The notes: generated by a model not told the origin, from the sequence alone. Positions 2,074-29,576 are shown, counted from the stretch's first letter. The stretch: 64,000 nucleotides of DNA from a virus (IMGVR_UViG_3300045988_010396:37395-101394); one strand, 5' to 3'. Numbers and translations are program-made.

Positions 2074-2713
2074 AGCACTAATATTAAGAGTAATATACCT
2101 CAAGATAGATAGGGACAAATAGGACTCACCTAAACGAAAATCCGCTGTTGAGTGAAAGATTGATGTGAAGGTCAGACAAGTAAACTCATGGAGTTGAAAG
2201 CAGCACCGAGGGACTGGGAATCGAGTAGACAAGACACAGTGCATTAGTAGAAAGGGGACTTGACAGTAAAGGTACTAAAACCTGGTAAGTGTAACGAGTT
2301 GAGGTTTCTATTAGGAGATGATACCAATGGGTGTTGAATAGCATATATTTAGTATCCCTAATAATATTATAATGTATCTATTAAACTCCGTATATCTTAA
2401 AAAGTACTGGAGGTTACTGACTTTAATAATAACAGTGCTTAAGGGGATTAGCATATATTGGTTAATGCAATAGTTATTCTATGCAAATAGGCTCAAATCC
2501 TATATCACCTACTAATAAAATAACCACAAAATATACAACAATGAAAAGAAAGAGATTAAAAGGGGCATTTGTATGTTCCGTGACAGATTCTAGGCTCACT
2601 ATAAGAGTCTGTAAAACTAAGAGGTACTTCATCATGTTCTGGGGTGAGCTTTATGAGATTAAATTCTCTGAAGTCAAGATGTATGAGGCACACAACATTA
2701 AGGTAATAGTGAG

Positions 2714-3040
2714 ATGAGAAAATATGTTGTCTATGACACCACAGGCAATCCTGTTGGTGTGTCATTCAAAACTATTAGAGAGGCTGAAGAGTATAAAGCC
2801 ATCAACAGGAGATTTGATTGGGTTGTGAAGCTGGTAGACATAAACATATGGAGGGAGAGCACTCCTAAACAAAGGAATGCTCTTACCTTCTGTGAGAAGG
2901 TCTTGGATATTCAATTTGAAGGCAACAGGCATGATTTCTATGAAGTGTCTGACTTCTTGTCTGAGTATCTGGAAGAGGCTAAACAAACAGCAATAGAATT
3001 ATCATGTATGTATTCATCTTATATGTGGAACAATGATTAA
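2714..3040 (+). CDS. Hypothetical protein, 108 aa
   Basis: ORF with coding-like composition; no recognisable motif. Confidence 0.4.
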   Translation: MRKYVVYDTTGNPVGVSFKTIREAEEYKAINRRFDWVVKLVDINIWRESTPKQRNALTFCEKVLDIQFEGNRHDFYEVSDFLSEYLEEAKQTAIELSCMYSSYMWNND

Positions 3041-3245
3041 AGTAAGTAAATGCGTGTTACTGTACGCAACAATCATATGCAGCATTCTGTTTATAACAGG
3101 TGGTGACGCAATAATGTCAGTAGGTATTAAATACTTTCTGATATTTGGGTTAGTTTGTGTTGCTCTAATTTATCTATCTTATAAATTAATATCCAAGAAG
3201 GAGTTTGATTCCTTCACGGGATTTAACATTATAGATAAATTGTAG
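3033..3245 (+). CDS. Small membrane protein, 70 aa
   Basis: Two hydrophobic helices; start overlaps the previous ORF. Confidence 0.4.
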   Translation: MIKVSKCVLLYATIICSILFITGGDAIMSVGIKYFLIFGLVCVALIYLSYKLISKKEFDSFTGFNIIDKL

Positions 3246-3319
3246 TTGTAGATTGGGCTTTTCTGGTTCGTGAGAATAGGAAAAGACTTTTATAGTAAAC
3301 AATTAAAAACAGATTAAAT

Positions 3320-3613
3320 ATGAGAATTATAGTAGTTTTTATATTTGCTTGCATTAGTCTTATAGCCAGTGCACAGCAATTCAAGCGTGAGGGTAATACC
3401 TTTGTGCAGGATACCACAAAAACTTTCAGAAAGTCTGAGGGTAAGGAGACCAAATACACCTACAAGGATAAGAATAATAAGGTATATCCTATATTCATTA
3501 CCTCTTCTGGAGCTGTGTATATAAACAAAATATCAGCAAAGACAGGTAAGGAATACAGAATGTACCTTCCCAAGGGTATCAAGGAAGCTATTGCCAAGGA
3601 GATAAAGCAATGA
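3320..3613 (+). CDS. Secreted small protein, 97 aa
   Basis: N-terminal signal peptide MRIIVVFIFACISLIASAQQ; Lys-rich mature part. Confidence 0.45.
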   Translation: MRIIVVFIFACISLIASAQQFKREGNTFVQDTTKTFRKSEGKETKYTYKDKNNKVYPIFITSSGAVYINKISAKTGKEYRMYLPKGIKEAIAKEIKQ

Positions 3614-3705
3614 TTATAACAATATTTGCTTGGCTATTTGTAATAGTTTGGGTATTAAAAATGAAAGACCAATGATAATACTTGGAATTTTAGAGATGAT
3701 ATTCT

Positions 3706-4002
3706 ATGGTTTTGGTACATTCTTGTTTTGTATCTTGCTATGGCATGTCTTTTTTAACGATAAATAAGATGTCTGAGCTTCTTGTTACAATCCTTAACAA
3801 ACTAGGTTTGGGTAAAGGATGTAGAGTATACAACATATCTAACATGAAAAGATACATGTATGATGTGTTTGGAGACTCTATAAAGGTAGATATAATATCT
3901 CCTATATCTGTCAGTCTTGAAGCAGGTAGTAATAAAATCATTATCACTTATGAGATAGTGAACAGTACGATAAAGAGTCTGACTATTAAAGAGGTGTTAT
4001 AA
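3706..4002 (+). CDS. Hypothetical protein, 98 aa
   Basis: ORF only. Confidence 0.3.
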   Translation: MVLVHSCFVSCYGMSFLTINKMSELLVTILNKLGLGKGCRVYNISNMKRYMYDVFGDSIKVDIISPISVSLEAGSNKIIITYEIVNSTIKSLTIKEVL

Positions 4003-4009
4003 ATGGCTC

Positions 4010-4095
4010 ACTCCCTTAGCTCAGTTGGTTCCGCAAGGCTTGAGAGCATCGGACTTTTAATCCGAGGGTCATGGGTTCGAGTCCCATAGGGAGTA
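4010..4095 (+). tRNA. tRNA-Lys(UUU) with a 12-nt insertion in the D-loop
   Basis: Acceptor ACTCCCT/AGGGAGT 7 bp; D-stem GCTC/GAGC; anticodon stem TCGGA/TCCGA with loop CTTTTAA; T-arm ATGGG-TTCGAGT-CCCAT. The extra CCGCAAGGCTTG lies between the D-loop GGTT and the 3' D-stem. Confidence 0.7.
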
Positions 4096-4112
4096 CTATT
4101 CATTTCATTCAA

Positions 4113-4432
4113 GGGGCTGTATTTGGTCTTGACTGGTGGCTACTTGGTATGAGGACATGCAGAGACTGATGGAGAGACATCAAAACTTTAGGTGGCAACA
4201 GAATTTCTGCACCTGTAGCTCTTGCTGCTTAAGCAATCTACTGAGTTAGTCACTGACTTGGAAACAGAATAGTGACAAGACAAGATTTCTTGCATAGATA
4301 AATGCAAGTGGTGGACTATGTTGACAATCCAGTCAACCCCAGCAGAGAACCAACTGCATAATAAAGTGGTAAGCATGTGTAATCCTTATATTGAGAGCTA
4401 TTAGGACAGGGGTTCGACTCCCCTCAGCTCCA
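4113..4432 (+). ncRNA. ssrA: tmRNA (SsrA); tag ORF ...GGNRISAPVALAA*
   Basis: 5' end GGGGCTGTATTTGGTCTTGACTGG against E. coli GGGGCTGATTCTGGATTCGACGGG. 3' end GGACAGGGGTTCGACTCCCCTCAGCTCCA against GGACGCGGGTTCAACTCCCGCCAGCTCCA. Includes the G3:U wobble alanine identity pair. Internal reading frame ggc aac aga att tct gca cct gta gct ctt gct gct taa. Confidence 0.8.
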
Positions 4433-4508
4433 GAGGCACGTTGTTAGATACTTCCACGTAGTGTGCCTTGGGTTAAAAGCTAGATTCTAACAAAAAAAAA
4501 AAGATTAT

Positions 4509-4811
4509 ATGTTAATAACAGAAAGAGCAAAAAGGAAAATAAATACTTTATTAGATAGTACTAATGATTGTATAAACTATCCTAAAACTAATAAAGATGG
4601 TTATGGGGATATTCAAGAGATTGTGGAGGGTAAAAAGCTCCACATGTTAGCTCATAGAGTATCTTATCAGTTATATACAGGAGAAGACATATCACCTGAT
4701 GATATAATATGTCATAGATGTGATAATCCTGCTTGTATTAATCCTAGACATTTGTTCAGAGGCACTCACTCAGATAATATTAAAGATAAGGTTTGTACCC
4801 ATTATTCATAA
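4509..4811 (+). CDS. HNH homing endonuclease
   Basis: Motif [14 protein letters not shown] and downstream HSDN (HNH fold). Confidence 0.7.
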
Positions 4812-5107
4812 GCGGTCGTAGCATAATTAGCGGTGACGCGGTAGTGGAATCCAATTACGACTATATTGTTTTCAAGAACTGGTGGTCATCAGGAAGATAC
4901 TTTACATGGACTAGAAGCAATGATATGTGGTGTGTTGGATGCTTCTACGGCACGGGCAAGGAGCTAATCGCTAAAGCCTACAAGGACAGCAAGGTGAGTG
5001 GTAGAGAGTATGAGAGAATAGTCAAATATGTAGAGCGGATTAAGAGAGACAGCAAGCCATCTTTGTGGCGGAGAATACTGTTTAATCTTAGCAAGCTCTG
5101 CAAATAG
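4793..5107 (+). CDS. Hypothetical protein, 104 aa
   Basis: ORF overlapping the HNH gene end; may be its C-terminal extension in another frame. Confidence 0.3.
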
Positions 5108-5611: not shown

Positions 5612-7035
5612 ATGTGTTCAAAAGTTAATCCTAACCTAAAGCCTGTACCTAAGTTTGAAAACACTCAACTGGCAGGTGGTTATGGTGCATTAGCTGCCAG
5701 GCAGTCCAATGTAGCATTGCTTAGAAGAGCAGTGCTGGCTAATCTCCTTTGAGAGGATGTAGCATATATGGATGGTGAGAGAGTAGCCAATGAAATACAG
5801 AGGTTAATACCTCTGTGCCCTGCTGAGGATGTATATAATATAGCTCTTGAAGCTAGGTTAATGCAGAAACTGAGGCATACTCCATTGTTTATAGCAGTGG
5901 AAATGTGCAAGTATCCTGAACATAAGTTATTTGTTAAGGACTTGCTACCAAAGATAGTTACAAGAGCTGATATGCTCACTGACTTCTTGGCTATATATAT
6001 ATATATTGGAAGGATGGCAAGCATCCTATCTGTAACCAAGCTAAGAAGGGTCTTGCTCTAGCCTTCCACAACTTCAATGAGTATAAGTTGGCTAAGTATG
6101 ACAGAGATGCTGCTATCAAGCTCAGGGATGTGATGTTCTTGGTACATGCAAAGCCTAGAAACCAGTATGAGCAGGAGTTGTTCAATAAGGTAGCTGAGAG
6201 AACTCTCACACCACCTGAGACATGGGAAGTCATGTTAAGTAGAGGTGATGACAAGAAGGCTACTTGGACTAAGCTCATTACAGAGGGTAAGATTGGAGGT
6301 CTGGCTATGTTGAGAAACATAGCTAATATGCAGAAGGCCAATGTGGATAGAAGGACTATCCAAGATGGCCTTAAGACACTGAGAAGCTCAATGCTATTAC
6401 CTCTTGACTTCTGGAAGGCTGCTAGAATGAACCCAGCATTTGAGAGAGACATTGAGGATGCTATGATAGAGGCATATAAGAACTTACCTAAACTTCCTGG
6501 CAAGACACTATTTATAGTGGATGTATCAGGTTCTATGGGTTTTTTAACCTCTGGTAGCTCTCAGTTCAACAGGATGGACCAAGCTTGTGCTATGGCTATC
6601 TTGGCAGCTAATCAGTGTGAGGACTATGAGCTTGTAGCTACAGCAGGTAATGATGATTCTAAAATAAGTGCCTCAGAGTGGATTGAATATCCAAAGAGAG
6701 GTTTTGCTCTTGCTCCACAGATAATGGATACCAGGCATAGGATTAGTGGTGGAGGTATATTCACCAGGCAGTGCCTAGAGTGGTGTAAGGATAAGTTCAA
6801 AGACAAGAAGTTTGATAGAATTATCATATTCTCAGACTCTCAAGACTGTGACTATCCTGAGAAGAGAGTACCTAAACCATTTGGTACATATAACTATATT
6901 GTAGATGTATCTGCTCATACAAGAGGAGTGAACTACAAGGGTGTATGGACTGCTGAGGTTTCAGGCTGGTCAGAACATTTCTTGACTTATATTGCAGCTC
7001 TTGAGGGATTGCAGAATAAGTTTGAGGAGCAATAA
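5612..7035 (+). pseudogene. rsr: Ro60/Rsr-like protein (TROVE domain plus vWA), interrupted by an in-frame TGA at 5750-5752 and a frameshift at the TA tract 5992-6006
   Basis: N-terminus VNPNLKPVPKFENTQLAGGYG resembles human Ro60 VNQMQPLNEKQIANSQDGY. Other TROVE matches: HTPLFIAVEMC to QEPMLFALAIC; KLRDVMFLVHAKP to KDLLRLSHLKP; GGLAMLRNIANMQKA to MPLTALLRNLGKMTA. The vWA MIDAS motif is FIVDVSGSM. The track ORF 6088 starts at TTG; homology continues upstream to the TA tract. Confidence 0.65.
5992..6006. repeat. (TA)7T dinucleotide tract inside the rsr-like gene
   Basis: tatatatatatatat. Loss of one TA unit fuses the frame-2 ORF 5768-6061 with the frame-1 ORF ending at 7035. Confidence 0.8.
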
Positions 7036-7385: not shown

Positions 7386-7524
7386 GGCGGAGTAGCTAAA
7401 TGGTTAAAGCAACACCCTTACAGAATTTATCTGGTAAAGCAGTAGTGGGTTGTCAGGGTTACTTCAAGGTTATAGCATTAGTTTTGGGTGCTAAAGAATG
7501 TAAGTTCGAGTCTTACCTCCGCCA
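7386..7524 (+). tRNA. tRNA-Pro(UGG) gene carrying a 66-nt intervening sequence (7407-7472 or 7412-7477) in the D-arm or at the 26/27 junction
   Basis: Acceptor GGCGGAG/CTCCGCC; D-stem GCT(A); intact anticodon arm TTAGT-TTTGGGT-GCTAA at 7478-7494; T-arm GTAAG-TTCGAGT-CTTAC. Confidence 0.65.
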
Positions 7525-7733
7525 CTTATTTACCTACCTCACCTAGCATAGTTATACAGGATAAGACCCATTATGATGGAGCACCGATGAAACTATCCTA
7601 GCCACGCTGGTATTGCTATTCAGTGAGTGAGAAAATGAATAGCCTCGAAGCATAGTGGAGATAACGTCAAGGAGTACCATCCTTAGCAGCTATGTAAAAT
7701 TGGTTGACAATCTGGAAAGACAGATAATAAAAT

Positions 7734-9014: not shown

Positions 9015-9734
9015 ATGATAGAATTTGGACTTAAGAGAGTTACAAATGGTAAGAAATCAAGGTTTCTTAAGAAGTTTCCTCGTAAGAGAATACTCCATAG
9101 GGGGGATGAGAAAGCTGCCTCTTGGTTTAGAAACAACTGGATAGATGATAACTACATATACTTTAAGGGTAACTTGGATAGATTCCTTAAGTCCAATGTA
9201 GGAAGACCAGTTGATAAGGTATTTTCAGAATTCCTTGACAGGTGTAATAAATCTGCCAGTGTATATAATCTGAGGAAGTGGTTCTATGACATGTTTAAGG
9301 AAAAGTCAGAGATTGGCTGGTCAGGTGGTTTCTATATCACCAATGGCATATTGAACTACAAGAAGAGAACCAAGAAACCTAAGTACAAGTCTTACATCAG
9401 CATGTGTGACTATAACAGGCAGTTAATACCTGATATAGGTGCTCTGTGCAGACAATGTGAGTCAAGTCATCTCAAGCAACCTGTTGGAGAGTTCAGGCTT
9501 GCCTATAAGGGCCAGAAGAGGGTTTACTTAGTGGAGAGGGAGATATGGTTATCAGACCTAAAGCTACAGTCTCACTATAGGTTATGCTCTATTTATGGAG
9601 TGGGCAAGGGAGTATCCAAGAGTATATTGGATTATCAAGACAAGATGTACAAGGCTACCTATGTATTATGTGACAATCTGGGTTGGTCTGAACTACCTGA
9701 GTTTGTATTTATTACCAAGATTGAAGAGAAATGA
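9015..9734 (+). CDS. Hypothetical protein, 239 aa
   Basis: Intact ORF; basic N-terminus. Confidence 0.45.
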   Translation: MIEFGLKRVTNGKKSRFLKKFPRKRILHRGDEKAASWFRNNWIDDNYIYFKGNLDRFLKSNVGRPVDKVFSEFLDRCNKSASVYNLRKWFYDMFKEKSEIGWSGGFYITNGILNYKKRTKKPKYKSYISMCDYNRQLIPDIGALCRQCESSHLKQPVGEFRLAYKGQKRVYLVEREIWLSDLKLQSHYRLCSIYGVGKGVSKSILDYQDKMYKATYVLCDNLGWSELPEFVFITKIEEK

Positions 9735-9913
9735 AGAAAGGTCTTATACTAGTAGCATTAGTATTATTGTTCATAGTGTTTATGGCTATACTGACAGGTT
9801 GTCTTAGCCTAATATCAGCACCTAACACTATAGAGAACATATTGGGAGTGGTGATACTAGCTGCCACTATGATAACAACGATAAATCTAATCAAGAGTCA
9901 AATTCAAAAATAA
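9731..9913 (+). CDS. Small membrane protein, 60 aa
   Basis: Two hydrophobic helices; 4-nt overlap with the upstream gene. Confidence 0.4.
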   Translation: MKKGLILVALVLLFIVFMAILTGCLSLISAPNTIENILGVVILAATMITTINLIKSQIQK

Positions 9914-9951: not shown

Positions 9952-10737
9952 GTGAAAAGTAAATTGATTTTGGGACTTCTGTTCTCGTTTATGATGTTCT
10001 CCATGACATCCTGTATGGAGAAGGTAGATGCTGGTTGTGAGGGCATCAAGGTGAATCTGTATGGTAGCGATAAGGGAGTAGATGATGCTTCCCTAGTAAC
10101 TGGTATTGTATGGTACAACCCCTGGACCACTACAGTATATGAGTACCCCACCTATGTACAGACCATTGACTATGAGCCATTCACTATCAATGCTAAGGAT
10201 GGTTCTGAGTTCACTGTAGACCCTACTGTGTCATTGAAGATTATTGATGGCAAATCACCTGCTGTCTTCAAGAAGTACAGAAAAGAATTGAATGAGGTAA
10301 TCAAGGGTACTCTGTATAACTATGTGAAGGATGCCTTTAGAATCCAGTTGAACAAGTTCACCACTGATGACATTGTGAGCAAGAGGGATAGCATTGAGAG
10401 TGCTATTGAGAGATATTTGACTCAAGCACTTGCCAAAGAGAACTTCCAATTGGAACAGCTCACTTCTGGATTGAAGTACCCCCAAACCATTGTAGAGTCT
10501 GTGAATGCTAAGAATAAGGCTATACAGCAGGCCATGCAGGTAGAGAATGAGGTCAAGGTAGCAGAGGCCCAAGCCAAGAAGCTCATTGTAGCTGCTGAGG
10601 CAGAGAAGAAAGCCAATGAATTAAGACAACAGGCTCTTACTCCAGCTATTCTTGAGAAGATGTGGATTGAGAAATGGGATGGTAAGCTTCCTGTGTATGG
10701 TCAAGTGCCTACTATATTCAAGGATATTAGTAAGTAA
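9952..10737 (+). CDS. SPFH/band-7 (prohibitin/HflC-like) domain lipoprotein
   Basis: Signal peptide with a Cys (..FSMTSC). Central SPFH-like block followed by a coiled coil: VKVAEAQAKKLIVAAEAEKKANELRQQ. Confidence 0.5.
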   Translation: MKSKLILGLLFSFMMFSMTSCMEKVDAGCEGIKVNLYGSDKGVDDASLVTGIVWYNPWTTTVYEYPTYVQTIDYEPFTINAKDGSEFTVDPTVSLKIIDGKSPAVFKKYRKELNEVIKGTLYNYVKDAFRIQLNKFTTDDIVSKRDSIESAIERYLTQALAKENFQLEQLTSGLKYPQTIVESVNAKNKAIQQAMQVENEVKVAEAQAKKLIVAAEAEKKANELRQQALTPAILEKMWIEKWDGKLPVYGQVPTIFKDISK

Positions 10738-14949: not shown

Positions 14950-15480
14950 ATGGCAAAAGCATTGATTTTAGCTAAGACTGGGTTTGGTAAATCCAGTTCA
15001 CTGGTTGGTGTACCCTCTGCTGGTATATTAGGCTTGGACCCTAAGGAGACTTATCTCCTTAGCTGTGTTAATAAGCCTCTGCCTATCAAGGGTGCATCTA
15101 AGATTTATGTGCCTATACCTATGCAGGGTATTACTCCTGCTAACTTAGGTTCAGTCATAGGTAAGGGCAACAGGATTATCACCAAGGATGCCAAGATTGT
15201 AGCTGCTGCTATAGAGTTGCTAATCAATTCACCCTTCAAGAACATAGTAGTTGATGATATGAACTATCTATCGCAGGACTACTATATGAAGAATGCCATG
15301 AAAGGTGGTTGGGACACTCCTAAGCAGATAGGTTACAATATGGGTCTTATCTTTGACCAGATTGACAATGTGCCTGAGGATAAGAACATTATCTGTATGG
15401 CTCACTTTGAGACCTACAAGGATAAGAATGGTGACTCCATCTCTTACAAGTACAAATCAACTGGTAACATGGTAGCATAA
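14950..15480 (+). CDS. AAA_24/Sak4-like P-loop ATPase (possibly exon 1 of an intron-split gene)
   Basis: N-terminal Walker A LAKTGFGKSS; Walker B NIVVDD. Confidence 0.45.
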   Translation: MAKALILAKTGFGKSSSLVGVPSAGILGLDPKETYLLSCVNKPLPIKGASKIYVPIPMQGITPANLGSVIGKGNRIITKDAKIVAAAIELLINSPFKNIVVDDMNYLSQDYYMKNAMKGGWDTPKQIGYNMGLIFDQIDNVPEDKNIICMAHFETYKDKNGDSISYKYKSTGNMVA

Positions 15481-15690
15481 CATCTGCCATTATCTATCTA
15501 ATTGCTGGAACACCCTAAAGACAACTGAACTACAAAGTAATTGGTAACAATAAGCTTGAATGTTTGAAAATCAGTTGTATTCTTAGTGATGGAGAAATGG
15601 GCAATCAGCAGCCAAGGGACTCTACGAGTTCAAGGTTCATCGACTATCCCCTGTTGTGGGGGAGTACATTTATAAAGTAATCAATTATAT

Positions 15691-16305
15691 TTGGAAATGG
15701 TAGACAATAGAGAAGTACACATTTATGCATTAAGACATCCTGATACCTTAGAAATAAGGTATGTCGGTAAAACAGTGAGAAAATTAAGTAGAAGGTTAGG
15801 GAATCATATTGCAAATGCTAAAGGTAACCAGCACAATAAGCATTTAAGTAATTGGATTCTTAATATCTTGAAGGAAAATAAGAAACCTGTAATAGAACTC
15901 TTGGAAACTTGTCAAAGTAATAACTGGCAAGAAAGAGAGCAATATTGGATTTCTCAATTTCCTAATCTGATAAATCTCACTGCTGGAGGAGATGGATGTG
16001 TAGGTTTTATTCATGATTCTAAAGCTATAGAAAAGATTAGACAATCTAAATTTGGTACTAAACATTCTGTAGAATTTAAGGAAGCTATGAGTAAAAGGCT
16101 TAAAGGTGTGCCTCTTAGTGAAGAACATAAAAGTAAAATAGGTTTAGCTAATAAGGGAAGGAAGGCTTCGGAAACTGCAAGAAAGAGGCTATCAGAATCC
16201 CACAAAGGTATTACTCAGAGTGAGGAATCCAAAAGAAAAAGAAGTGAATCTATTAAACTTTGGTGGACTAAGAGAAAGTCTATTGAAGATATAGTCAAAT
16301 CTTAA
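15691..16305 (+). CDS. GIY-YIG homing endonuclease with NUMOD-like repeats
   Basis: IYALRHPDTLEIRYVGKT...R..NH; repeated EEHKSKIG/SESHKG units as in I-TevI-type HEGs. Confidence 0.75.
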   Translation: MEMVDNREVHIYALRHPDTLEIRYVGKTVRKLSRRLGNHIANAKGNQHNKHLSNWILNILKENKKPVIELLETCQSNNWQEREQYWISQFPNLINLTAGGDGCVGFIHDSKAIEKIRQSKFGTKHSVEFKEAMSKRLKGVPLSEEHKSKIGLANKGRKASETARKRLSESHKGITQSEESKRKRSESIKLWWTKRKSIEDIVKS

Positions 16306-19396: not shown

Positions 19397-20074
19397 ATGG
19401 AGACACGTAAAGTAACCATCATCAATTCAAAGACCCAGAGCCAGAAAGTAATTCAGGACTCTAAGGCTACAACTCTCGGTGAACTCAAGCAGGAAATGAG
19501 GGAGAGAGGTATTGACTACACAGGTATGACTTTCTTTGAAGGTCACATGAGAGCTGAACTCAAGGATGATGCAGCTCCCCTGCCTGCTAACATACCCTAT
19601 AAGGGTCAGGTAGTCAATGACTTGACATTCATGTTGACTGCACCTGAGAAGAAGGTTAAGTCAGGTGCTATGTCAAGAGCAGAAGCCTATGCAGAAATCA
19701 AGAAGAAGGGCTTGCAGGGTGCTTGTGTTAGTATGTTCGGTAAGAATTTCACACAGTGTTCCACTGCTGACCTTATCTCTTTGATTGAGAAGAACTCTGC
19801 TAAGGCAGCTCCTGCACCCAAAGCTGAGAAGCCTATAGAGGCAGCAGCTCCTGCAAAGAAGGAGGAAGCTTCTATAGCACCTGAAACTCCTGCTACTGGC
19901 TGTAACTGTTCAAAGGCTATTGCCATTCTCGCAGAAGCACTATATGATAATGATACCATTGAGGGGGAGACCTATGACGCAATCATGGCTACTCTCAAGG
20001 GTGGTTCTTACAGTGCACCTGAGAAGATGAGCAAGAAGGAGATTGATACTATGTTTGACTTTGTGGAAAGATAA
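19397..20074 (+). CDS. Hypothetical protein, 225 aa
   Basis: Preceded by TAACATTTAACATTT 7 nt upstream; Ala/Pro/Lys linker. Confidence 0.45.
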   Translation: METRKVTIINSKTQSQKVIQDSKATTLGELKQEMRERGIDYTGMTFFEGHMRAELKDDAAPLPANIPYKGQVVNDLTFMLTAPEKKVKSGAMSRAEAYAEIKKKGLQGACVSMFGKNFTQCSTADLISLIEKNSAKAAPAPKAEKPIEAAAPAKKEEASIAPETPATGCNCSKAIAILAEALYDNDTIEGETYDAIMATLKGGSYSAPEKMSKKEIDTMFDFVER

Positions 20075-20142
20075 GGTCAGATTGGATAACACAGTGAAGG
20101 GTGAGTAGTATACTTGCCTTTCACTTTTTTTTTTATACAAGT

Positions 20143-21459
20143 ATGAATGAAGAAATGACTAACAAGGCAAGGGAGTTATATGATAATATCATGTACTTTC
20201 CTAATAAGGTTCTTAGTATATTCAATGACTTCTTTGGAGAGCAGAGAATAGATATGCAGGGGTTCTGGAGCTTTGAAGAGTTCCTATATTCAATATCTGA
20301 GAACAGGCTCAGTTTTTTCTTCTCTAACAGAGGTGCTGTACTTAGTAGCCCAGAGTTCCAAAGTACCAGTAAAGAGAATAAAGCTATTATAGAAGATATG
20401 CTTGATAATGGTGCTTTGGATAATACTGTACTCAGTGATGAGGCACTTGCCACATATTTCCTGCCTATAATGACTACTGCTGTATTGCAGCATGTTCCAC
20501 GAGGGTTCATTCTTGTGCATTTCCCTCATGTAAGGGTTACTAATGAGCATGATAAATTTGTGGATATAAGTCACCTATGGGTTAAAGTACATATAAAGGC
20601 AAATGGCGCAGGCACAGGTTACTTTGGTGTGAATAGGAGTGAGTATGAACTCTCTCATATGAAAGCAGACTATATGCATAGTCATGTTCCTGGTATTCCA
20701 TTCGGTGGGTTTACTAGTTTTATGTCTCCTTGTTTAGGCAGTGGACCCATCAGAAATACAGTAGCTACTCTTGCAATGGGATATGATGAAGCTATGTGGC
20801 AGTTGTTCTGTCTTGAACTGGACAAGTATGTTAGAGTTGAGAGTCTCTCTGGAGTACCTCATAGGTATCTGGAGAGGATAGGCAATGGTAGGGGCATGAC
20901 TAATGGAGAAACCCATTTCTCCATGAAATCTAATACATTCAATGACTATAGTAACATATTCTCTAAGGAGGATATGAAAGACTTTGTAGAGCACCTGATA
21001 AGAGGCAAGAAGCTTAAATTTAACTTTATAAGAGGAAGCTATGGTTTTGCAATGTCCTATCTTGACTATAGAATACTCATCAGTAATGAGTTCATCGAGT
21101 GGTATAATCTGAGATATAACTTAGGAAAATCTACTTCAAGTTATGATAACTTTATCAGTAAAGGAATACTGAAAGAATGTATCATCAACAATGGTAAGAT
21201 ACAATATTTTAGGAACAATACTGATAATGGTAGAAACTATTATAGATATGAAGGAGCTAATGTATGTACATTCAAGGGTAAACCCATCAATATACATATA
21301 GTAGACAGTTCCTGTGATACTCTTAACAAGACAGTGTTGGTCAATGCAGGTATTGCTGAGGAAATAGCAAAGGCAGTACTTACAATAGTAAATTACAAGT
21401 ATGGAAGAGAAGAAAGAGGAGAAGAAGCTGGAATTGGTACACCAGCAATCTATCTATAA
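20143..21459 (+). CDS. Hypothetical protein (track start 20101 is GTG; ATG at 20143). First gene of the JAB/E1 operon
   Basis: Large ORF of about 438 aa from MNEEMT; tightly coupled to the downstream JAB gene. Confidence 0.45.
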   Translation: MNEEMTNKARELYDNIMYFPNKVLSIFNDFFGEQRIDMQGFWSFEEFLYSISENRLSFFFSNRGAVLSSPEFQSTSKENKAIIEDMLDNGALDNTVLSDEALATYFLPIMTTAVLQHVPRGFILVHFPHVRVTNEHDKFVDISHLWVKVHIKANGAGTGYFGVNRSEYELSHMKADYMHSHVPGIPFGGFTSFMSPCLGSGPIRNTVATLAMGYDEAMWQLFCLELDKYVRVESLSGVPHRYLERIGNGRGMTNGETHFSMKSNTFNDYSNIFSKEDMKDFVEHLIRGKKLKFNFIRGSYGFAMSYLDYRILISNEFIEWYNLRYNLGKSTSSYDNFISKGILKECIINNGKIQYFRNNTDNGRNYYRYEGANVCTFKGKPINIHIVDSSCDTLNKTVLVNAGIAEEIAKAVLTIVNYKYGREERGEEAGIGTPAIYL

Positions 21460-22591
21460 GATGATAATCCCTCAGGAAGTTGAGAAGAAGATAAGACTTC
21501 TGTGCAGGGAGATACATAGTGTGGAATGGTCTGGAGTGCTATTCTACAAGGTAAGTGGTTCATTTGAGGATAAGTCACTGACAATTACTTGTGTAGACTT
21601 ATTTCAGATGGATGAAGGTACTGGAGGATATACTGAATATGATATGTCTCCAGATGTCTCAGGTTATATGGTAGACCATCCTGAGCTGCTTGATGCTGAT
21701 ATATATCAAGGACTTATCCATAGTCATAACAACATGGCGACGTTTTTCAGTGGTACTGATACAGCCACTCTACAGTCAGAGGGTAGTGACATGAACCACT
21801 TTGTGTCACTGATTGTAAACAATGCTGGTAAATATACAGCAGGGGTGACTAGAAAGGCTAAGCTCAAACAGACAGTCAATGAGGAGTTCACATATCCCAC
21901 ATGGAGGGATGAGAGTGTATCTGGCAATAGAACCTTTATAGTAGAAAAGGAGTACATCCAATGGTTCAATCTTGACATTGAAATTGAAGGAGTCTGCAAT
22001 GACTTTGAAACTGAGATGCTTGAAAGGATTAAGGAGATTAGGACTAATAAAGCCAGCTCTAGGAAAAGTGCTATCAATGTTAGAAGCCCTTATATTAGCT
22101 CAAATTATGGAGGACCAATAGGTTCCTATGGTAGCCCCAGAGGATATACAATACCTGCTGATCCAGCCAACACTACTCCTATCAAGAAAGAGGTTAAGCA
22201 ATCTACACTCTTTGGTGATAGTGATGAGGAGTTTATGGACTATGAGAAGTTCAAGCTCAGTGATGAGATAGTGGACTGGGTGGTCAAGCAGACCATCACT
22301 TGTAGTGTAATCATTCCTAACTCTAGTAATATTGACATAGAGAAGTGGGCTAGGTCTATGGATTCTCTGTATAAAAAGAGATTCACAGACAAGAAGGAGT
22401 TTGAAGCCTTTGCATCAAACTTTGTGGACTTTGTGGTTACCTATACAGAAGACCCAGAGGCTGCTGCCTTCTTGGATTCTACAGAGATGGCTGCTGTATT
22501 GGCTTATCAAGTAAAAGAGAGACTAAGCTCCCTGCCTAAGAATGAGTGGCTGGATGCTTGGATTAAATTGTATGATGATTATATACTATAA
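21401..22591 (+). CDS. JAB/MPN (JAMM) metalloprotease-domain protein
   Basis: Canonical JAMM motif HSHNNMATFFSGTD (HxHx7Sx2D) with an upstream Glu. The actual start may be MIIPQEV at about 21460. Confidence 0.65.
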   Translation: MEEKKEEKKLELVHQQSIYKMIIPQEVEKKIRLLCREIHSVEWSGVLFYKVSGSFEDKSLTITCVDLFQMDEGTGGYTEYDMSPDVSGYMVDHPELLDADIYQGLIHSHNNMATFFSGTDTATLQSEGSDMNHFVSLIVNNAGKYTAGVTRKAKLKQTVNEEFTYPTWRDESVSGNRTFIVEKEYIQWFNLDIEIEGVCNDFETEMLERIKEIRTNKASSRKSAINVRSPYISSNYGGPIGSYGSPRGYTIPADPANTTPIKKEVKQSTLFGDSDEEFMDYEKFKLSDEIVDWVVKQTITCSVIIPNSSNIDIEKWARSMDSLYKKRFTDKKEFEAFASNFVDFVVTYTEDPEAAAFLDSTEMAAVLAYQVKERLSSLPKNEWLDAWIKLYDDYIL

Positions 22592-22593
22592 GT

Positions 22594-23505
22594 ATGGAAG
22601 ATATGGTAAGTGAAGCAAGTGCTCAAGCTCTTAACCAATTAGAGCAGGCTCGTCAAGAGCTTGAAAGAGCTATTACGGATTATGAGATACCTGAGGAAGC
22701 TCAATTGAGTCCAGAAGAGGAAGCAATGTTGTCAGTAGCAATGGATAGTACACATCGTGAAATACCAGTAAACTCACAGACAATCACTATAGATGAGACT
22801 ACAAGCAGGTTCAGTGGAGCTATATGGTATGAGGAGATACAGAAACAGACTGTCACTTTGGCAGGTGTTGGAGGTATTGGCAGCTATGTAGGCTTTTTGT
22901 TAAGTAGATTGAAGCCAAATAGACTTATCATATATGACCCTGACAGAGTTGAGACTGTCAATATGTCAGGTCAGTTGTATGGTCAGACAGATGTAGGTCG
23001 TTATAAGTGTGCAGCTCTTGCCGATATGGTCATGAACTACGCTAACTATTGCAATATAGTGGCATTGGGCCAAAGGTTTGAGGATAACTCTGAGGCTACT
23101 GACATTATGATATGTGGCTTTGATAATATGGCAGCAAGAAGGACATTCTATGAGAAGTGGAAGCAGAGAGTATTGTCCTATCCTGCTGGTAGTGATAATA
23201 GAAAGAAGTGTCTATTCATAGATGGAAGATTGGCAGCAGAAGAGTTCCAAGTATTGTCTATTCAAGGGGATGATGAGAGGGCTATGGCAGCATATGAAGA
23301 CAAGTGGCTGTTCAGTGATGTAGAAGCTGAGGAGACTATATGCTCCTATAAGCAGACTACATTTATGGCTAACATGATTGCATCAGTAATGGTCAATGTC
23401 TTTGTAAACTTCATAGCTAACCAATGTGGTCCTATCATAGATAGGGATGTGCCTTTCTTCATATCCTATGATGCAAGTACAATGTTTACTAAAGTTGAAA
23501 TGTAA
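22594..23505 (+). CDS. E1-like (ThiF/MoeB family) adenylyltransferase
   Basis: Rossmann motif GVGGIGSYVGFLL and the conserved ICGFDNMAARR (DNxxxR) motif of ThiF/E1 enzymes. Confidence 0.65.
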   Translation: MEDMVSEASAQALNQLEQARQELERAITDYEIPEEAQLSPEEEAMLSVAMDSTHREIPVNSQTITIDETTSRFSGAIWYEEIQKQTVTLAGVGGIGSYVGFLLSRLKPNRLIIYDPDRVETVNMSGQLYGQTDVGRYKCAALADMVMNYANYCNIVALGQRFEDNSEATDIMICGFDNMAARRTFYEKWKQRVLSYPAGSDNRKKCLFIDGRLAAEEFQVLSIQGDDERAMAAYEDKWLFSDVEAEETICSYKQTTFMANMIASVMVNVFVNFIANQCGPIIDRDVPFFISYDASTMFTKVEM

Positions 23506-24302
23506 TGCAAAGAGTAAGTGATAGAATGGGTCATACTATTGAATATATGTATAACTCAACAGGAGCTGTAAGTGGCAGCGGAGTTTCAGCTGCATATGTT
23601 AATTACTCCTCGCACACAGTGTTTCCACTATTCTTTAGGGTTTCTTTACAAGGGGATAAGATTGAGCTTCCCATACTTGCCAAGGAGTGCGTGCAAGGTG
23701 ACCTTCTTGCAAGATTAGAGGCTAGGTCAAACCCTCTCAGAAGAAGGGACATCATTATGCCCCTCTCTACTCTAGAGTTTAACCATGCTCCTTATAGAAC
23801 AGCAGATGCCTTAATCAGGAATCTGGTGGAGTTCAACTCCAGTAGGGGGGACATGTATCTGAGGGCCAAGACCAACAAAGGAGAGACATACTATGGATGT
23901 AATGGTACTATATTCAACAAGGATATGGTTCCACTTATCTTCAATGTCATAGAATGTGAGATTGTGGGTAATACTCTTGCCTATAAGAGAGTCAAGAGTT
24001 ATATACATCCATCAGTATTCTATTCTGATGGTATTGTGGAGAAGTGTATAGCCAACAAGATTATCCCATTTGTCATGCAGAATGGTGTAGATGTGAGACC
24101 CTATGACTCAAGGATAGTCAATGACATCAGCTATGTAAATATAGGAGGAGTAAGGAAGACTATACCTGAGCTGTCAGTTGCCAATGTAGCTGACAGGTTC
24201 TTCTGTAAGCCCATTCTTCCTAGTGTGGCATATAGTGATGACAACATCAATGATATGCTTAACAGAAACATTGATGATATATTCAATATCATTGGGGTAT
24301 GA
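23505..24302 (+). CDS. Hypothetical protein, 265 aa (fourth gene of the JAB/E1 operon)
   Basis: Start overlaps the E1 stop. Confidence 0.4.
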   Translation: MQRVSDRMGHTIEYMYNSTGAVSGSGVSAAYVNYSSHTVFPLFFRVSLQGDKIELPILAKECVQGDLLARLEARSNPLRRRDIIMPLSTLEFNHAPYRTADALIRNLVEFNSSRGDMYLRAKTNKGETYYGCNGTIFNKDMVPLIFNVIECEIVGNTLAYKRVKSYIHPSVFYSDGIVEKCIANKIIPFVMQNGVDVRPYDSRIVNDISYVNIGGVRKTIPELSVANVADRFFCKPILPSVAYSDDNINDMLNRNIDDIFNIIGV

Positions 24303-25003
24303 CACTTGAGGAATACTTTGGTGATTGGCTTAGAGTGATTGACAGAGCAGAGTTAGATAAGGTATTGATACTCCTTAACAGGATGTATAAGGTAAAACCT
24401 ATATGTCCTGCACAGGAGAATGTATTCAAGGCATTCAACTTGTGTAAGTACCATGACTGTAAGGTGGTATTCATAGGTCAAGACCCATATCCTCAGAAGG
24501 GTGTGGCTACTGGCATATTGTTTGGAAATGATGCAAGTACTAGAGAAGATGACTGGTCTCCATCGTTAAAAATTGTTAGAGATTCAGTTATAGACTTGCG
24601 TAGACCACATAATTTGATTACCTTTGACCCCACTTTAGAATCATGGGCTAAACAAGGAATCCTTATGATTAACTCTGCTTTGACAGTAGAGATGAATAAG
24701 GTAGGCTCACACACTATGTTGTGGAGGACCTTCATCTCAAAGCTACTAAAGAAGATGTCTGAGTATGATGCTGGTATGATATATGTGCTGTTTGGTGGCA
24801 CTGCCCGTACCTTCAAGCCATATATAGGAAAGTATAATGATGCGATAGAGATAGAGCATCCTGCATACTTTGCAAGAATCAACCAAGACATGCCCTCAGA
24901 TATATTCTATAAGATTAACAGACTATTAAAAGATAGGTGTAACTACCAGATTAACTGGTATAAAGAAGAAAAATATGAACAAATTGAAACTGAAAAAGAG
25001 TAG
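24299..25003 (+). CDS. ung: Uracil-DNA glycosylase (family-1-like)
   Basis: GQDPYPQKG water-activating loop motif; a later HPA motif. Confidence 0.55.
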   Translation: MTLEEYFGDWLRVIDRAELDKVLILLNRMYKVKPICPAQENVFKAFNLCKYHDCKVVFIGQDPYPQKGVATGILFGNDASTREDDWSPSLKIVRDSVIDLRRPHNLITFDPTLESWAKQGILMINSALTVEMNKVGSHTMLWRTFISKLLKKMSEYDAGMIYVLFGGTARTFKPYIGKYNDAIEIEHPAYFARINQDMPSDIFYKINRLLKDRCNYQINWYKEEKYEQIETEKE

Positions 25004-26194: not shown

Positions 26195-26797
26195 ATGGAG
26201 TGTAGTATTTGGATTTATCAAAAATTCTTAGTATCTTTGCACTTTGCAACTAAAGTTTTTGAAGATATGGAAGAAATTTGGAAAGACATTCCTGGATATG
26301 AGGGATTGTACCAAGTTAGTAGTCTTGGAAGGTTCAAAGCTCTGAGTAGAGTAAGAAAGGGAATTTATGGAAATAGAATCTACAAGGAAAAGTTATTATC
26401 TCCTAAAGTGAATTTTGATAGGTACTACTATGTAACCTTAACTAAGGAAGGTAAGAAAACTAGTTATAGAGCACATAGACTAGTAGCTTTAGCTTTTCTT
26501 GGAGATAGCAATCTAGTCATAGACCACATTGACGGTAATCCCTTGAATAATGAGGTTACTAATCTAAGATATGTATCTCAAGCTGAGAATGTTTCTAATC
26601 CTAATACTATATGTAAGCAGTATAAGCCTGTTATACAGTTGTCTATGGATGATACTGTTATAGCTGAGTATCCTTCAGTTATGAGTGCTGCACTAGCAGT
26701 GGGAGCTTATAAATATGGGACTCATATAGGGCAGTGCTGTAATGGAAAGAGGACTACTGCATATAATTATAAATGGAAATGGAAAGAAAAAGTATAA
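26195..26797 (+). CDS. HNH homing endonuclease (NUMOD4 plus HNH_3 type)
   Basis: WKDIPGYEGLYQVSSLGRFKAL (NUMOD4) and IDHIDGNPLNNEVTNLRYVSQAEN. Confidence 0.7.
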   Translation: MECSIWIYQKFLVSLHFATKVFEDMEEIWKDIPGYEGLYQVSSLGRFKALSRVRKGIYGNRIYKEKLLSPKVNFDRYYYVTLTKEGKKTSYRAHRLVALAFLGDSNLVIDHIDGNPLNNEVTNLRYVSQAENVSNPNTICKQYKPVIQLSMDDTVIAEYPSVMSAALAVGAYKYGTHIGQCCNGKRTTAYNYKWKWKEKV

Positions 26798-27822
26798 AAG
26801 ACATCTCATGGCAAGTTTCAGAGCCAACCTATAGGGCTGATAGTGCTATAAGCTATTCAACCCTAAGTAGATTTGAAAGGGAAGGGTGGAGAAAGCTTGG
26901 CTCACTCTTTGATAAGATTGAAACACCCTCACTCACATTTGGAAGTGCTGTTGATACTAAGCTGACTGATGGGGATGAGGCATTCAATGAGAGGTTCATT
27001 GTATGTGACTTCCCACCATTGTCAGATACATTGATAAGCATTACAAAGTTCCTCCACAAGAACTTCCATGAGAGCCATAGGAAACTCAGCATGATAGATG
27101 ATGCTGAGATTAGTAGGGCTGCATTGATGTTCAACTATTATGCTAATCCCAAGTATGAGAACTTTAGGGTAAAGAGTATTAAGGAGAGCTGTAGTGAATA
27201 CTATTCACTTCTTACATTAGCAGGAGACAGGACTGTACTATCACAGAATGACTATGCTGACGTAATGGCTTGTGTGGAAGAGTTAAAGACCAATTCAGCA
27301 ACCAAGTATTTCTTTAGCTCAAATCCTTTTGAGACTCAGATTGAGAAGGTGTTCCAGTTGAAGTTCAGAGCAGAGTTTCAAGGCATACCTGTCAGATGTA
27401 TGTTTGACGAGATTATTGTAGACCATGAGAAGAAGATAATATACCCTATAGACTTAAAGACTACAGGTCACCCTGAGGAAGAGTTTGAGGAGTCTTTCTC
27501 TCAATGGAGATATGATATTCAAGCCAAGCTATATACCTATATATTACAGGAGTGTATCAAGAATGATGAGTACTTCAAAGACTTCAAGATACAGCCCTAT
27601 CAGTTTGTAGTTATAAACAGAAGGACTGTAGCTCCTATTGTATGGGTGTTTGAAGGGAACTTTGGACAAGTAGACCTTAAAGATGACAAAGGTAATATAT
27701 TGAGGGATTGGAGGAAGATACTCAGTGAACTTCATTATTACCTGAGATACTCTGGCAAATATAGTATAAGGGCAATGGAAAATAACTGTGTATTAAAGAT
27801 AAATAATTTGACAATATGTTGA
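26773..27822 (+). CDS. PD-(D/E)xK exonuclease (RecB/Cas4/YqaJ-like)
   Basis: IYPIDLKTTG plus QAKLYTY (QxxxY) motifs. Confidence 0.5.
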   Translation: MEMERKSIKDISWQVSEPTYRADSAISYSTLSRFEREGWRKLGSLFDKIETPSLTFGSAVDTKLTDGDEAFNERFIVCDFPPLSDTLISITKFLHKNFHESHRKLSMIDDAEISRAALMFNYYANPKYENFRVKSIKESCSEYYSLLTLAGDRTVLSQNDYADVMACVEELKTNSATKYFFSSNPFETQIEKVFQLKFRAEFQGIPVRCMFDEIIVDHEKKIIYPIDLKTTGHPEEEFEESFSQWRYDIQAKLYTYILQECIKNDEYFKDFKIQPYQFVVINRRTVAPIVWVFEGNFGQVDLKDDKGNILRDWRKILSELHYYLRYSGKYSIRAMENNCVLKINNLTIC

Positions 27823-29576
27823 AAGTAGTTAAGAGAGACAGAAGTATTGAGGACTTTAATGCCCAAAAGGTAGTCAGTGCAGTCCAGAAGGCATTTGCAT
27901 CAGCGGGATGTGTTTTTTCTGAGTATCTGAACACAATGATACCTGCCTTGTTTGAAGAGGGGGATATTATTGGTGTAGAGGATATACAGGATAGAGTAGA
28001 GCAACTGCTGATGAATGACAAGCACTTCAAGGCTGCTAAGTCATATATCCTATATAGGGAGAAGCACAAGCAAGCCAGGTTTATTAGAGAAAGGATTGAT
28101 TATATGTCCAACTATGCAGATTCTGATGATAATGCTGCTAGTTCTTCAGAGACTGACCCTAATGCTAATGTAACCCAGAAGAATGTTGCCAATCTTGATG
28201 GGGAAGTTTATAAGACAGAGAATAGGATTATTCAGAGGCAAAGGATGAAGGATGAACTTAATATCCTTTATCCAGAGGTAGCAAAGCAGTATGAAGTGGA
28301 TATTGAGAACCATATATTCTACCCTCACGATGAAGCTAGTGTACCTACTTTGAAGTTCTATTGTCAGGCAGATACTCTTTATCCACTTATGACAGAAGGT
28401 GTAGGTAATATAGATGGTGTGACACCAACTCCTCCTAATGATTTACAATCATTTAGTGGACAAATAACTAATCTTACCTTCTTGCTTTCTTCTCAGTGTA
28501 AAGGTGCAGTAGCCTTTGGAGAATATTTCATTGCTCTGAACTATTACATCATTGCAGAGTTTGGGGATAAATGGTATGAGAAGCTTGATTGTGTTGTAAC
28601 GTCTCCTCATTGTAGGATTCAAAGAACAGTCAGAGATTTCATAGAGAAAGCCTTCAAGCAGTTTATCTATGGCATTAATCAACCTGCTGGTAATAGGTCA
28701 TATCAGAGTCCATTTACAAATGTATCTTATTATGACCATACATACTTTAGTTCATTGTTTGGAGAATTTTGTTATCCTGATGGAACTAAGCCTGAGTGGG
28801 CTGCAATTAATGTTCTTCAGAAGATGTTTATGAAGTTCTTCAATAAACTTAGAACCAAGCAGATTTTGACCTTCCCTGTTGAAACACTGGCAATGGTACA
28901 TGATGACAAGGATATTATAGACAGAGAATATAAGGATTTCTGCGCAGAAATGTATGCAGAAGGACACTCATTCTTTACTTATATTTCAGATAGTGCTGAT
29001 AGTCTTGCATCATGCTGTAGATTGAGAAATGAACTTGCAGAGAATACTTTCAATCCTACATCAGGTCTTACTGGTGTTATGACTGGTAGCTGCAATGTTA
29101 TCACTCTTAATATCAATAGGATTATACAGGATTGTGATAAGGCTTATGGGTTGAAGAGAAATGGTGGTTGGAAAGAGAATACCTCATTTATTAAGGATTA
29201 CTTAGTAGATATTCTTCATAGAGTCTATAAGTATCATATTGCTTATAAGACTATGCTCTATGAACAAGAAGAGAAAGGTATGTTTGCAGCTTGCAATGGT
29301 GGATATATCAGGGTGTCAAAGCTATACAGTACCGTAGGTATCAATGGCTTGAATGAGGCTGCTAAGTTCTTAGGTCTTGAAGTATCTAACAACAAGGACT
29401 ATATAGAGTTCTTGCAGTTGGTTCTTGGCACTATTAAGGAACAGAACAAGTTACACTCTATCCATGACAAGAAGAGACCTTTCCTGTTTAATTCTGAGGT
29501 AGTTCCTGCTGAGTCTCTCGGTGGTAAGAATTATAGATGGGATAAAGAGGATGGATTAGAACCAATGTCCATCTAA
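27816..29576 (+). CDS. nrdD: Anaerobic ribonucleoside-triphosphate reductase NrdD, exon 1 (lacks the Zn-ribbon and glycyl-radical C-terminus)
   Basis: Class III RNR-like core. The C-terminal CxxC and RVIGY motifs are absent here but present in ORF 30350-30685. Confidence 0.7.
   Translation: MLKVVKRDRSIEDFNAQKVVSAVQKAFASAGCVFSEYLNTMIPALFEEGDIIGVEDIQDRVEQLLMNDKHFKAAKSYILYREKHKQARFIRERIDYMSNYADSDDNAASSSETDPNANVTQKNVANLDGEVYKTENRIIQRQRMKDELNILYPEVAKQYEVDIENHIFYPHDEASVPTLKFYCQADTLYPLMTEGVGNIDGVTPTPPNDLQSFSGQITNLTFLLSSQCKGAVAFGEYFIALNYYIIAEFGDKWYEKLDCVVTSPHCRIQRTVRDFIEKAFKQFIYGINQPAGNRSYQSPFTNVSYYDHTYFSSLFGEFCYPDGTKPEWAAINVLQKMFMKFFNKLRTKQILTFPVETLAMVHDDKDIIDREYKDFCAEMYAEGHSFFTYISDSADSLASCCRLRNELAENTFNPTSGLTGVMTGSCNVITLNINRIIQDCDKAYGLKRNGGWKENTSFIKDYLVDILHRVYKYHIAYKTMLYEQEEKGMFAACNGGYIRVSKLYSTVGINGLNEAAKFLGLEVSNNKDYIEFLQLVLGTIKEQNKLHSIHDKKRPFLFNSEVVPAESLGGKNYRWDKEDGLEPMSI

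Follow-up and report, generated by a model that had tools for sequence, protein, structure and literature searches.

A candidate ubiquitin-like conjugation cassette encoded in the replication module of Steigviridae-type crAss-like phages

Several bacterial systems that conjugate ubiquitin-like proteins (Ubls) have been described, and those of the Bil, CBASS (anti-phage signalling systems based on cyclic oligonucleotides) Cap2/Cap3 and Bub types serve, where their function has been tested, in anti-phage defence. Bil operons encode a Ubl, an E2, a JAB peptidase and an E1 (PMC11601596), the same complement as proposed for the cassette reported here, and the E1 of these operons, BilD, consists of tandem inactive (IAD) and active (AAD) adenylation domains with an inserted CYS domain of ~80 aa (PMC10557695). 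The JAB domain of BubCD releases a Ubl from its fusion to an E2 by cutting behind a Gly that is conserved, and type I Bub (6E/DUF6527) systems form Ser/Tyr oxyesters, have no catalytic cysteines and use a DUF6527 serine protease (PMC11601596). Phages lambda and T1 encode TAPI, in which a Ubl-like domain with a C-terminal Gly is followed by a low-complexity linker and a second domain, and which adjoins TAPK (JAB and NlpC), predicted to release the Ubl (PMC1779556). Here we describe five adjacent genes (ORF0 to ORF4, all on the + strand, henceforth referred to as the cassette) in a 64,000-nucleotide (nt) stretch of viral DNA (IMGVR_UViG_3300045988_010396:37395-101394, henceforth referred to as the window, from whose first nt window positions are counted), which we consider, with a probability of roughly 0.6, to be a true phage-encoded Ubl conjugation cascade.

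A first-pass annotation of this DNA had proposed a four-gene operon at 20143-24302, containing a JAB/MPN metalloprotease, an E1-like (ThiF) enzyme and two further genes, as a phage module for Ubl conjugation or deconjugation. All four ORFs (ORF1 to ORF4) are present at these coordinates, and the module is supported in silico, its E1 and JAB components by profile searches together with conservation of catalytic residues. Judged by its sequence, ORF3 (22594-23505, 303 aa) is clearly a ThiF/E1 adenylation domain with conserved catalytic residues, of the single-domain ThiF/MoeB/UBA5 type. Its match to Pfam ThiF has an E of 7.7e-18 and scores 64.9 bits, the cut-off being 28.1, and the two motifs from which it had been recognised, GVGGIG (22864-22881) and DNMAARR (23122-23142, with the Mg-binding Asp), are invariant in 76 homologues, as is Cys250 (23341-23343). 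By sequence, ORF3 falls among the adenylating ThiF-family Rossmann domains and not in a non-adenylating Rossmann family. Its best NCBIfam matches were PRK08644 (5.6e-17) and thiF_fam2 (2.3e-16), and its scores for the NCBIfam ThiF-family, PRTRC_ThiF and cap2_3 models were all far under their cut-offs; among PADLOC models the E1-E2 (Cap2) models reached 3e-11 and BilD gave a weak and partial match (6.8e-6). The nearest solved structures in the PDB were UBA5, MccB and UBA3. Cys250, the putative thioester-forming residue, lies in a short crossover region ~68 residues after DN..R, and a weak, non-significant HMMER sub-alignment placed it on the ‘GVCAAS’ of UBA5. The enzyme is probably homodimeric, and its N-terminal extension is acidic and variable in length.

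The conserved catalytic residues of ORF2 (21401-22591, 396 aa) place it in the JAB/JAMM metallopeptidase family. As first reported, it carries an exact JAMM motif, HSHNNMATFFSGTD (21719-21760), which fits HxHx7SxxD with H107, H109, S117 and D120, and an upstream Glu, E42, is encoded at 21524-21526. The JAMM ligands have been kept rather than lost in homologues: across 76 of them their conservation reaches 90% or more, and they are also found in Flavobacterium phage Fpv1 and Dulem virus 41. The match to Pfam Prok-JAB (E 3e-4, 21.1 bits) falls just short of the 25-bit cut-off, the PADLOC JAB match has an E of 0.013, and the best PDB alignments were weak matches to Rpn11 (E 0.39-0.88) that placed the motif on the Rpn11 JAMM. 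The C-terminal extension of ~250 aa had no Pfam match. In two lineages the JAB gene is interrupted just before the HxH motif: in L089 (7836-10290) by a group I intron (9055-9317, 90.5 bits) with a LAGLIDADG ORF, and in L085/Fpv1 (2707-5002) by a LAGLIDADG gene on the opposite strand.

The first-pass annotation had suggested that the two flanking ORFs might supply the missing E2 or Ubl. This expectation was borne out in part: ORF1 is an E2-like candidate, as set out below, and no Ubl was recognised among the four ORFs, the candidate instead lying in ORF0 (19397-20074), directly upstream of and outside the interval originally reported. Sequence conservation and gene context point to residues 1-90 of ORF0 (19397-19666), which end in Ser89-Gly90 (codons 19661-19666), as the most likely Ubl candidate. 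They are followed by a variable ‘cargo’ (residues 91-225, 19667-20074) in which a linker of low complexity joins a conserved helix-turn-helix-like motif to an acidic motif at the C-terminus; in an alignment of 72 homologues the helix-turn-helix-like motif reads SRAEAY..GLQ..FGKNFT.C.T.DLI and the acidic one S..EID.MF, and the cargo had no Pfam match. The N-terminal domain ends in ...KK[VI][KR]-S-G, of which the SG is invariant or nearly so. A profile of this domain matched 156 proteins, many of them only 89-92 aa long and stopping 1-2 residues past SG, as do 34 of the ORF0 homologues examined. In the divergent lineage L082/L083 a stand-alone 89-aa tag gene (ending in ASGI) is followed directly by ORF1, JAB, E1, ORF4 and the uracil-DNA glycosylase (UDG) gene, with no cargo gene, and the tag of Fpv1 reads ...VKSGG|RGDG. 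Across homologues the tail after SG can be absent, short, unrelated, of the type seen in the window, or one with an inserted L7/L12 C-terminal domain. Searched against 1.84 billion representative proteins, the tag domain was found in 1135 clusters at 50% identity; among the matches listed it corresponded to residues 1-90 in 150 of 150, and these comprised close family members only, with no bridge to known Ubl families.

Natural disruptions of ORF0 mark the same boundary. In L046 (3541-4014), L052 (3844-3987) and L084 (6291-6804) the gene is split 2 codons after SG by an HNH/NUMOD homing-endonuclease gene, which in L052 is degraded, so that the 91-aa tag and the cargo are encoded by different genes, the latter with a start codon of its own. 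Rfam detected no intron at this split, though group I introns were found elsewhere (in the UDG gene of L045 and the JAB gene of L089). The possibility that the 91-aa ‘stand-alone’ tags are intron artefacts was rejected, given this result and the start codon of the 3' half. Since the endonuclease splits ORF0 just after SG and no intron was detected there, the two halves of ORF0 can evidently work as separate polypeptides. Overall, ORF0 behaves like a ubiquitin-type precursor, with the tag at its N-terminus, a Gly conserved at the end of the tag and C-terminal extensions that can be exchanged. A beta-grasp fold would be expected of such a tag, and a crude Chou-Fasman profile of residues 1-90 gave the same order of elements as in ubiquitin.

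The cargo shows further features. By eye, its helix-turn-helix-like motif resembles SAP/HeH, and the long forms of ORF0 end in an acidic-aromatic motif (PYSDDEIDDMF and MSKKEIDTMFDF, in the window at 19990-20074 and in homologues) that resembles, again by eye, the C-terminal tails of single-stranded DNA-binding protein (SSB) and T7 gp2.5. These tails of SSB and T7 gp2.5 recruit replication proteins. The inserted ribosomal L7/L12 C-terminal domain occurs in the cargo of L058 (3414-4352; Pfam E 1.1e-8, over the cut-off) and also in L064 and L065.

The second candidate component, ORF1 (20143-21459, 438 aa), is probably the missing E2, as judged from its predicted structure and conserved residues. 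An AlphaFold2 model built with 31 aligned homologues (predicted local distance difference test, pLDDT, 83.8) has three parts, namely a helical N-terminal domain, a UBC/E2-like core and a C-terminal alpha/beta domain. The core (approximately residues 116-235, 20488-20847) consists of a four-strand meander (residues 121-169), a long loop and two helices, and the loop after the meander holds the invariant motifs Y-M-H179-S-H181 (H179-S-H181 at 20677-20685) and P-C197-x-G (C197 at 20731-20733). The pattern Y[MI]HSH-x15-19-C[LI]G is kept in four lineages, including the divergent L083, Dulem virus 41 and Fpv1. The layout of H179/H181...C197 in ORF1 matches the His...Cys arrangement by which active E2s are recognised, an arrangement that has been described in E2-like proteins of bacteria (PMC1779556). 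Homology searches did not recover an E2: Pfam UQ_con and Prok-E2 matched none of the 31 ORF1 members, ORF1 had no significant Pfam, NCBIfam, PADLOC or PHROGs family, the PDB profile search was empty even at E 10, and hhalign of the core against UBE2D2, UBC9 and UBC13 gave a probability of 0.1%. The UBC fold that the first-pass annotation had proposed to seek with AlphaFold and Foldseek was likewise not retrieved, the best match of the ORF1 model in the PDB having an E of 0.57 and no E2 being found. When 185,579 bacterial and archaeal species genomes were scanned with the ORF1 alignment, only 2 contigs matched, both in metagenome-assembled bins and probably phage, and the scan thus revealed no bacterial ancestor of ORF1.

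The tag is genomically linked to the E1, E2-like and JAB genes. Every complete locus retrieved with the E1 has the order primase, ORF0, ORF1, JAB, E1, ORF4, UDG, and the order tag, ORF1, JAB, E1 was found in 80 of 80 loci retrieved with the tag profile, a sample made up of tag-profile loci whose downstream sequence spans 5.5 kb or more. Dulem virus 41 and Fpv1 also have the four-gene core, as do, by gene order only, lineages L089 and L090; jumbo Xanthomonas phages have only a ThiF-like gene.

Taken together, these components suggest the following cascade. The JAB peptidase (ORF2) would first cut ORF0 after Gly90, giving a tag with a C-terminal Gly and a freed C-terminal fragment. The E1 (ORF3), binding ATP through GVGGIG and Asp177, would then adenylate Gly90, possibly followed by a thioester on Cys250, and the tag would be handed on to ORF1, whose UBC-like core would accept it at Cys197. 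A target chosen by the extra domains of ORF1 or by ORF4 would have the tag joined to a lysine, and ORF2 could also remove it. Cleavage at Gly90, the thioester chemistry, the E2 activity and the targets are all predicted here; given the place of the cassette in a replication module, the tag may be meant for proteins of the replisome, of DNA metabolism or of host defence. Between ORF0 and ORF1 lies a terminator-like hairpin with a T run (20093-20135; hairpin 20093-20125, 15-bp stem, T9), which is present at the same position in 49 of 69 loci and also in L083, with stem sequences that differ across lineages. This hairpin is possibly an attenuator that sets the tag:enzyme ratio, a leaky terminator after ORF0 keeping the tag in excess over the enzymes.

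A number of observations weigh against the proposed cascade. The hairpin lies between ORF0 and ORF1, so that co-transcription of the tag with the enzymes may fail. No E3 was identified for the cassette. ORF0 residues 1-90 gave no Pfam match and no PDB-profile match even at E 10, and hhalign against a hand-entered alignment of ubiquitin, NEDD8, SUMO and ISG15 gave a probability of 1.6%. The equivalence of ORF1 C197 to the catalytic Cys of E2s is putative, and ORF3 has a Gly (NMSGQ) where the ‘N-x-x-R’ motif of E1s has its Arg.

We therefore considered other explanations for the cassette. It is possible, though in our estimate unlikely, that ORF0 is not the substrate and is instead an upstream replication accessory, the E1 and E2-like proteins acting on the C-terminus of another protein or peptide, as in the pairs of CBASS Cap2 with its cyclase and MccB with its peptide. 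Such a role would be consistent with the lack of support for a Ubl fold in the Pfam, PDB-profile and hhalign results, with the hairpin that parts ORF0 from the enzyme genes, and with the Rossmann part of ORF3, which matches Cap2-type E1-E2 models (3e-11) and, in the PDB, MccB and PaaA. However, the collinearity of ORF0 with the enzyme genes is strict in every sampled lineage, including the distant Flavobacterium phages, the terminal SG is invariant and the stand-alone forms end 1-2 residues later, none of the other neighbours ends in a conserved Gly (the C-termini of ORF4 vary), and no nucleotidyltransferase partner was found.

An improbable alternative is a sulfur-carrier pathway of the ThiS/MoaD/CysO kind, in which the JAB protein exposes the Gly, the E1 adenylates it and a thiocarboxylate serves as the sulfur donor for a metabolite or for a base in a nucleic acid, the Cys and His residues of ORF1 forming a sulfur relay. 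Operons for sulfur transfer that combine a JAB, a Ubl and an E1 are known (Iyer et al. 2006, PMC1779556). ThiF families (PRK08644, thiF_fam2) are the best NCBIfam matches of ORF3, GenBank labels the E1 homologues ‘thiamine biosynthesis protein’, and the neighbourhood is one of nucleotide and DNA metabolism. Yet the scores of ORF3 fall far under the ThiF equivalog cut-offs (62 versus 159 bits), no rhodanese, cysteine desulfurase, ThiG/ThiH or MoaE match was found among the window ORFs scanned, and ORF1 resembles E2/UEV/RWD folds and not sulfurtransferases. Counter-defence without conjugates of the phage's own, with the JAB protein stripping host Bil- or CBASS-type conjugates and the E1 and E2-like proteins serving as decoys or sinks for host Ubls, would suit both the attack of host Ubl systems on phage structural proteins (PMC11601596) and the fast evolution of ORF4, which is like that of arms-race proteins, but it is very improbable, as a decoy would not need the strictly kept E1 ATP site and Cys250 or the invariant Cys of ORF1, the phage brings its own tag-like domain in every lineage, and the JAB gene alone would suffice for deconjugation. 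The invariant SG boundary, the stand-alone and split forms, the collinearity and the conserved catalytic cysteines are jointly less well explained by any of these alternatives than by a phage-encoded Ubl conjugation cascade.

The last gene of the cassette, ORF4 (23505-24302, 265 aa), encodes an accessory protein that may confer specificity or be a target itself, unless the gene is unrelated to the others. No other gene of the block evolves as fast (its identity is 23-31% where that of the E1 is still ~60%), and no counterpart was recognised in either Dulem virus 41 or Fpv1. Its predicted model has a pLDDT of 81.6; Pfam, NCBIfam and PADLOC gave no family, the PDB profile search was empty even at E 10, and its one match in PHROGs, a weak one (E 0.0028), was to a family without an assigned function. 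The four ORFs had been described as translationally coupled to one another, which holds for ORF2/ORF3 (TAAGTATG) and ORF3/ORF4 (TAATG); ORF1 and ORF2 instead overlap by 59 nt, and an alternative ORF2 start, ATG at 21461, would leave 1 nt between them. The limit of a ‘four-gene operon’ did not stand. The UDG gene (24299-25003, + strand), the neighbour of ORF4 and outside the cassette, overlaps ORF4 by ATGA, so that the coupled run passes 24302 and the boundary is arbitrary. The UDG gene of the related phage L045 contains a group I intron at 9550-9793 (84.8 bits), and several other loci have a split UDG match.

The window comes from a crAss-like gut phage of the Steigviridae type. The DNA identity of the region to Bacteroides phage crAss001 (Steigviridae) is 67-70%, and the cassette is syntenic with crAss001 gp79-gp75, as are its flanks from gp80 (primase) to gp74 (UDG). 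In the crAss001 annotation gp79, gp78 and gp75 are ‘hypothetical’, gp77 is a ‘metalloprotease domain’ protein and gp76 is ‘thiamine biosynthesis protein ThiF’. Family scans of the window ORFs indicate that the cassette, which lies between the primase and UDG genes, is surrounded by a replication and nucleotide-metabolism module with genes for an SNF2/DEAD-type helicase, a DnaB-like helicase, a Toprim primase, UDG, a DUF1064 nuclease, a PD-(D/E)XK exonuclease, NrdD, dUTPase, a family A DNA polymerase and Thy1.

Further mobile or interrupted elements were seen in this part of the window. A group I intron in the replication module (15380-15761, + strand; Rfam 51 bits, barely over the gathering score) extends over the start of an ORF for a GIY-YIG/NUMOD3 homing endonuclease (15697-16305, + strand), and a free-standing NUMOD4 and HNH_3 homing endonuclease (26195-26797, + strand) separates a small ORF from the PD-(D/E)XK exonuclease gene. 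The anaerobic ribonucleotide reductase ORF (27816-29576, + strand; ATP-cone and NRDD) covers profile positions 3-428 of 562 only and is followed by a 250-nt gap, and the gene may be split or interrupted. Elsewhere, a phage transfer-messenger RNA (tmRNA) gene (4113-4435, + strand; Rfam 83.1 bits), for which ARAGORN predicted the tag peptide ASGGLC*, is adjoined by an odd tRNA-like gene (4010-4096, + strand), and a tRNA-Pro(TGG) gene lies at 7452-7525 (+ strand). Near these genes an ORF at 6133-7035 (+ strand) gave partial TROVE (E 5.8e-10) and Ro60-type von Willebrand A (vWA) matches, a Ro60-like protein fragment. An ORF at 9991-10737 (+ strand), in the early/replication region, encodes an SPFH/Band 7 family protein (E 9.3e-23). 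At ~51900 the coding strand switches and the sign of the GC skew flips, with flanking giant ORFs of 2159, 1369 and 2215 aa.

Extended to the group as a whole, the analysis leads to the proposal, for which we regard the odds as evenly balanced, that abundant lytic phages of the human gut, namely Steigviridae crAss-like phages and their relatives as far as Flavobacterium phages, run a full Ubl cascade of their own during infection, with a JAB-released tag, a minimal E1, a novel multidomain E2 and replisome, DNA-metabolism or host-defence targets, and that this would be the first phage-encoded Ubl conjugation system, a counterpart of the Bil and CBASS systems with which bacteria oppose phages. 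We found no paper linking crAss-like phages to ThiF, E1, JAB or ubiquitin, in a search that had subscription-only literature outside its scope. If the proposal is true, the E1s gain a very compact member, the E2s a new architecture and the Ubls a new family that ends in Ser-Gly, and it corrects a widespread mis-annotation of crAss-like genes as ‘thiamine biosynthesis protein’, ‘metalloprotease’ or hypothetical proteins. The hypothesis is directly testable because crAss001 (gp79-gp75) grows on Bacteroides intestinalis.

Among the described systems the cassette can be compared with, Bil (BilABCD, ISG15-like) shares a Ubl and an E2 (both putative in the cassette), a JAB/JAMM peptidase and an E1 in the same gene order, the absence of an E3 gene and an expected Cys chemistry. 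In contrast to BilD, ORF3 has 303 aa and one adenylation domain, with no IAD-AAD-CYS architecture; in contrast to Bil more generally, the E2-like core sits in a protein of 438 aa and three domains, the candidate tag forms the N-terminal part of a fusion, and the cassette is carried by a lytic phage and not by a bacterial defence island. Membership of Bil was rejected, since PADLOC BilD gave only its weak partial match to ORF3 and no Bil model matched ORF0, ORF1, ORF2 or ORF4. The homodimeric E1s UBA5, ThiF and MoeB resemble ORF3 in size, in their single adenylation domain and in the GxGxxG and DN..R motifs, and Cys250 of ORF3 is at what we take to be the position of UBA5 Cys250 and ThiF Cys184. 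ORF3 differs from them in falling under every NCBIfam equivalog cut-off and in having no Zn-binding CxxC pairs visible in its sequence, and identity with the ThiF of thiamine biosynthesis was rejected on the best equivalog score (62.1 bits versus 159) and on the neighbours, which are replication and repair genes. A Bub assignment was rejected because Pfam gave no DUF6527 match and Cys250 and Cys197 are invariant. In type II CBASS, an E2 and an E1 are fused in Cap2, which conjugates the CD-NTase by its C-terminus, whereas the cassette has separate E1 and E2-like genes and a dedicated small candidate tag domain; CBASS type II (Cap2/Cap3) was rejected, there being no cyclase or effector among the neighbours and no E2-E1 fusion. 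PRTRC systems of plasmids and integrative and conjugative elements likewise place a ThiF-family E1 with small associated proteins on a mobile element, and ORF3 matches TIGR03736 weakly (1.3e-9). PRTRC membership was rejected as well (37.8 versus 144.75 bits for ORF3, no PRTRC model for ORF0, ORF1, ORF2 or ORF4, and no ParB). The lambda/T1 TAPI/TAPK pair is echoed in ORF0, with its Ubl-like candidate, linker and second domain beside a JAB gene. That system has no E1 or E2 and belongs to a tail module, whereas the cassette has an E1 and an E2-like protein and lies between the primase and UDG genes, and a tail-assembly role of the TAPI/TAPK kind was rejected because of this location and these two proteins. 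If the reading as a conjugation cascade is true, the Ubl chemistry of the bacterial systems here serves the virus in this conflict, or else serves to control phage replication. Having failed the tests for Bil, Bub, CBASS, PRTRC and thiamine ThiF, the cassette is therefore classed apart from these, as a new phage-borne Ubl-E2-JAB-E1 variant of the bacterial Ubl conjugation systems.

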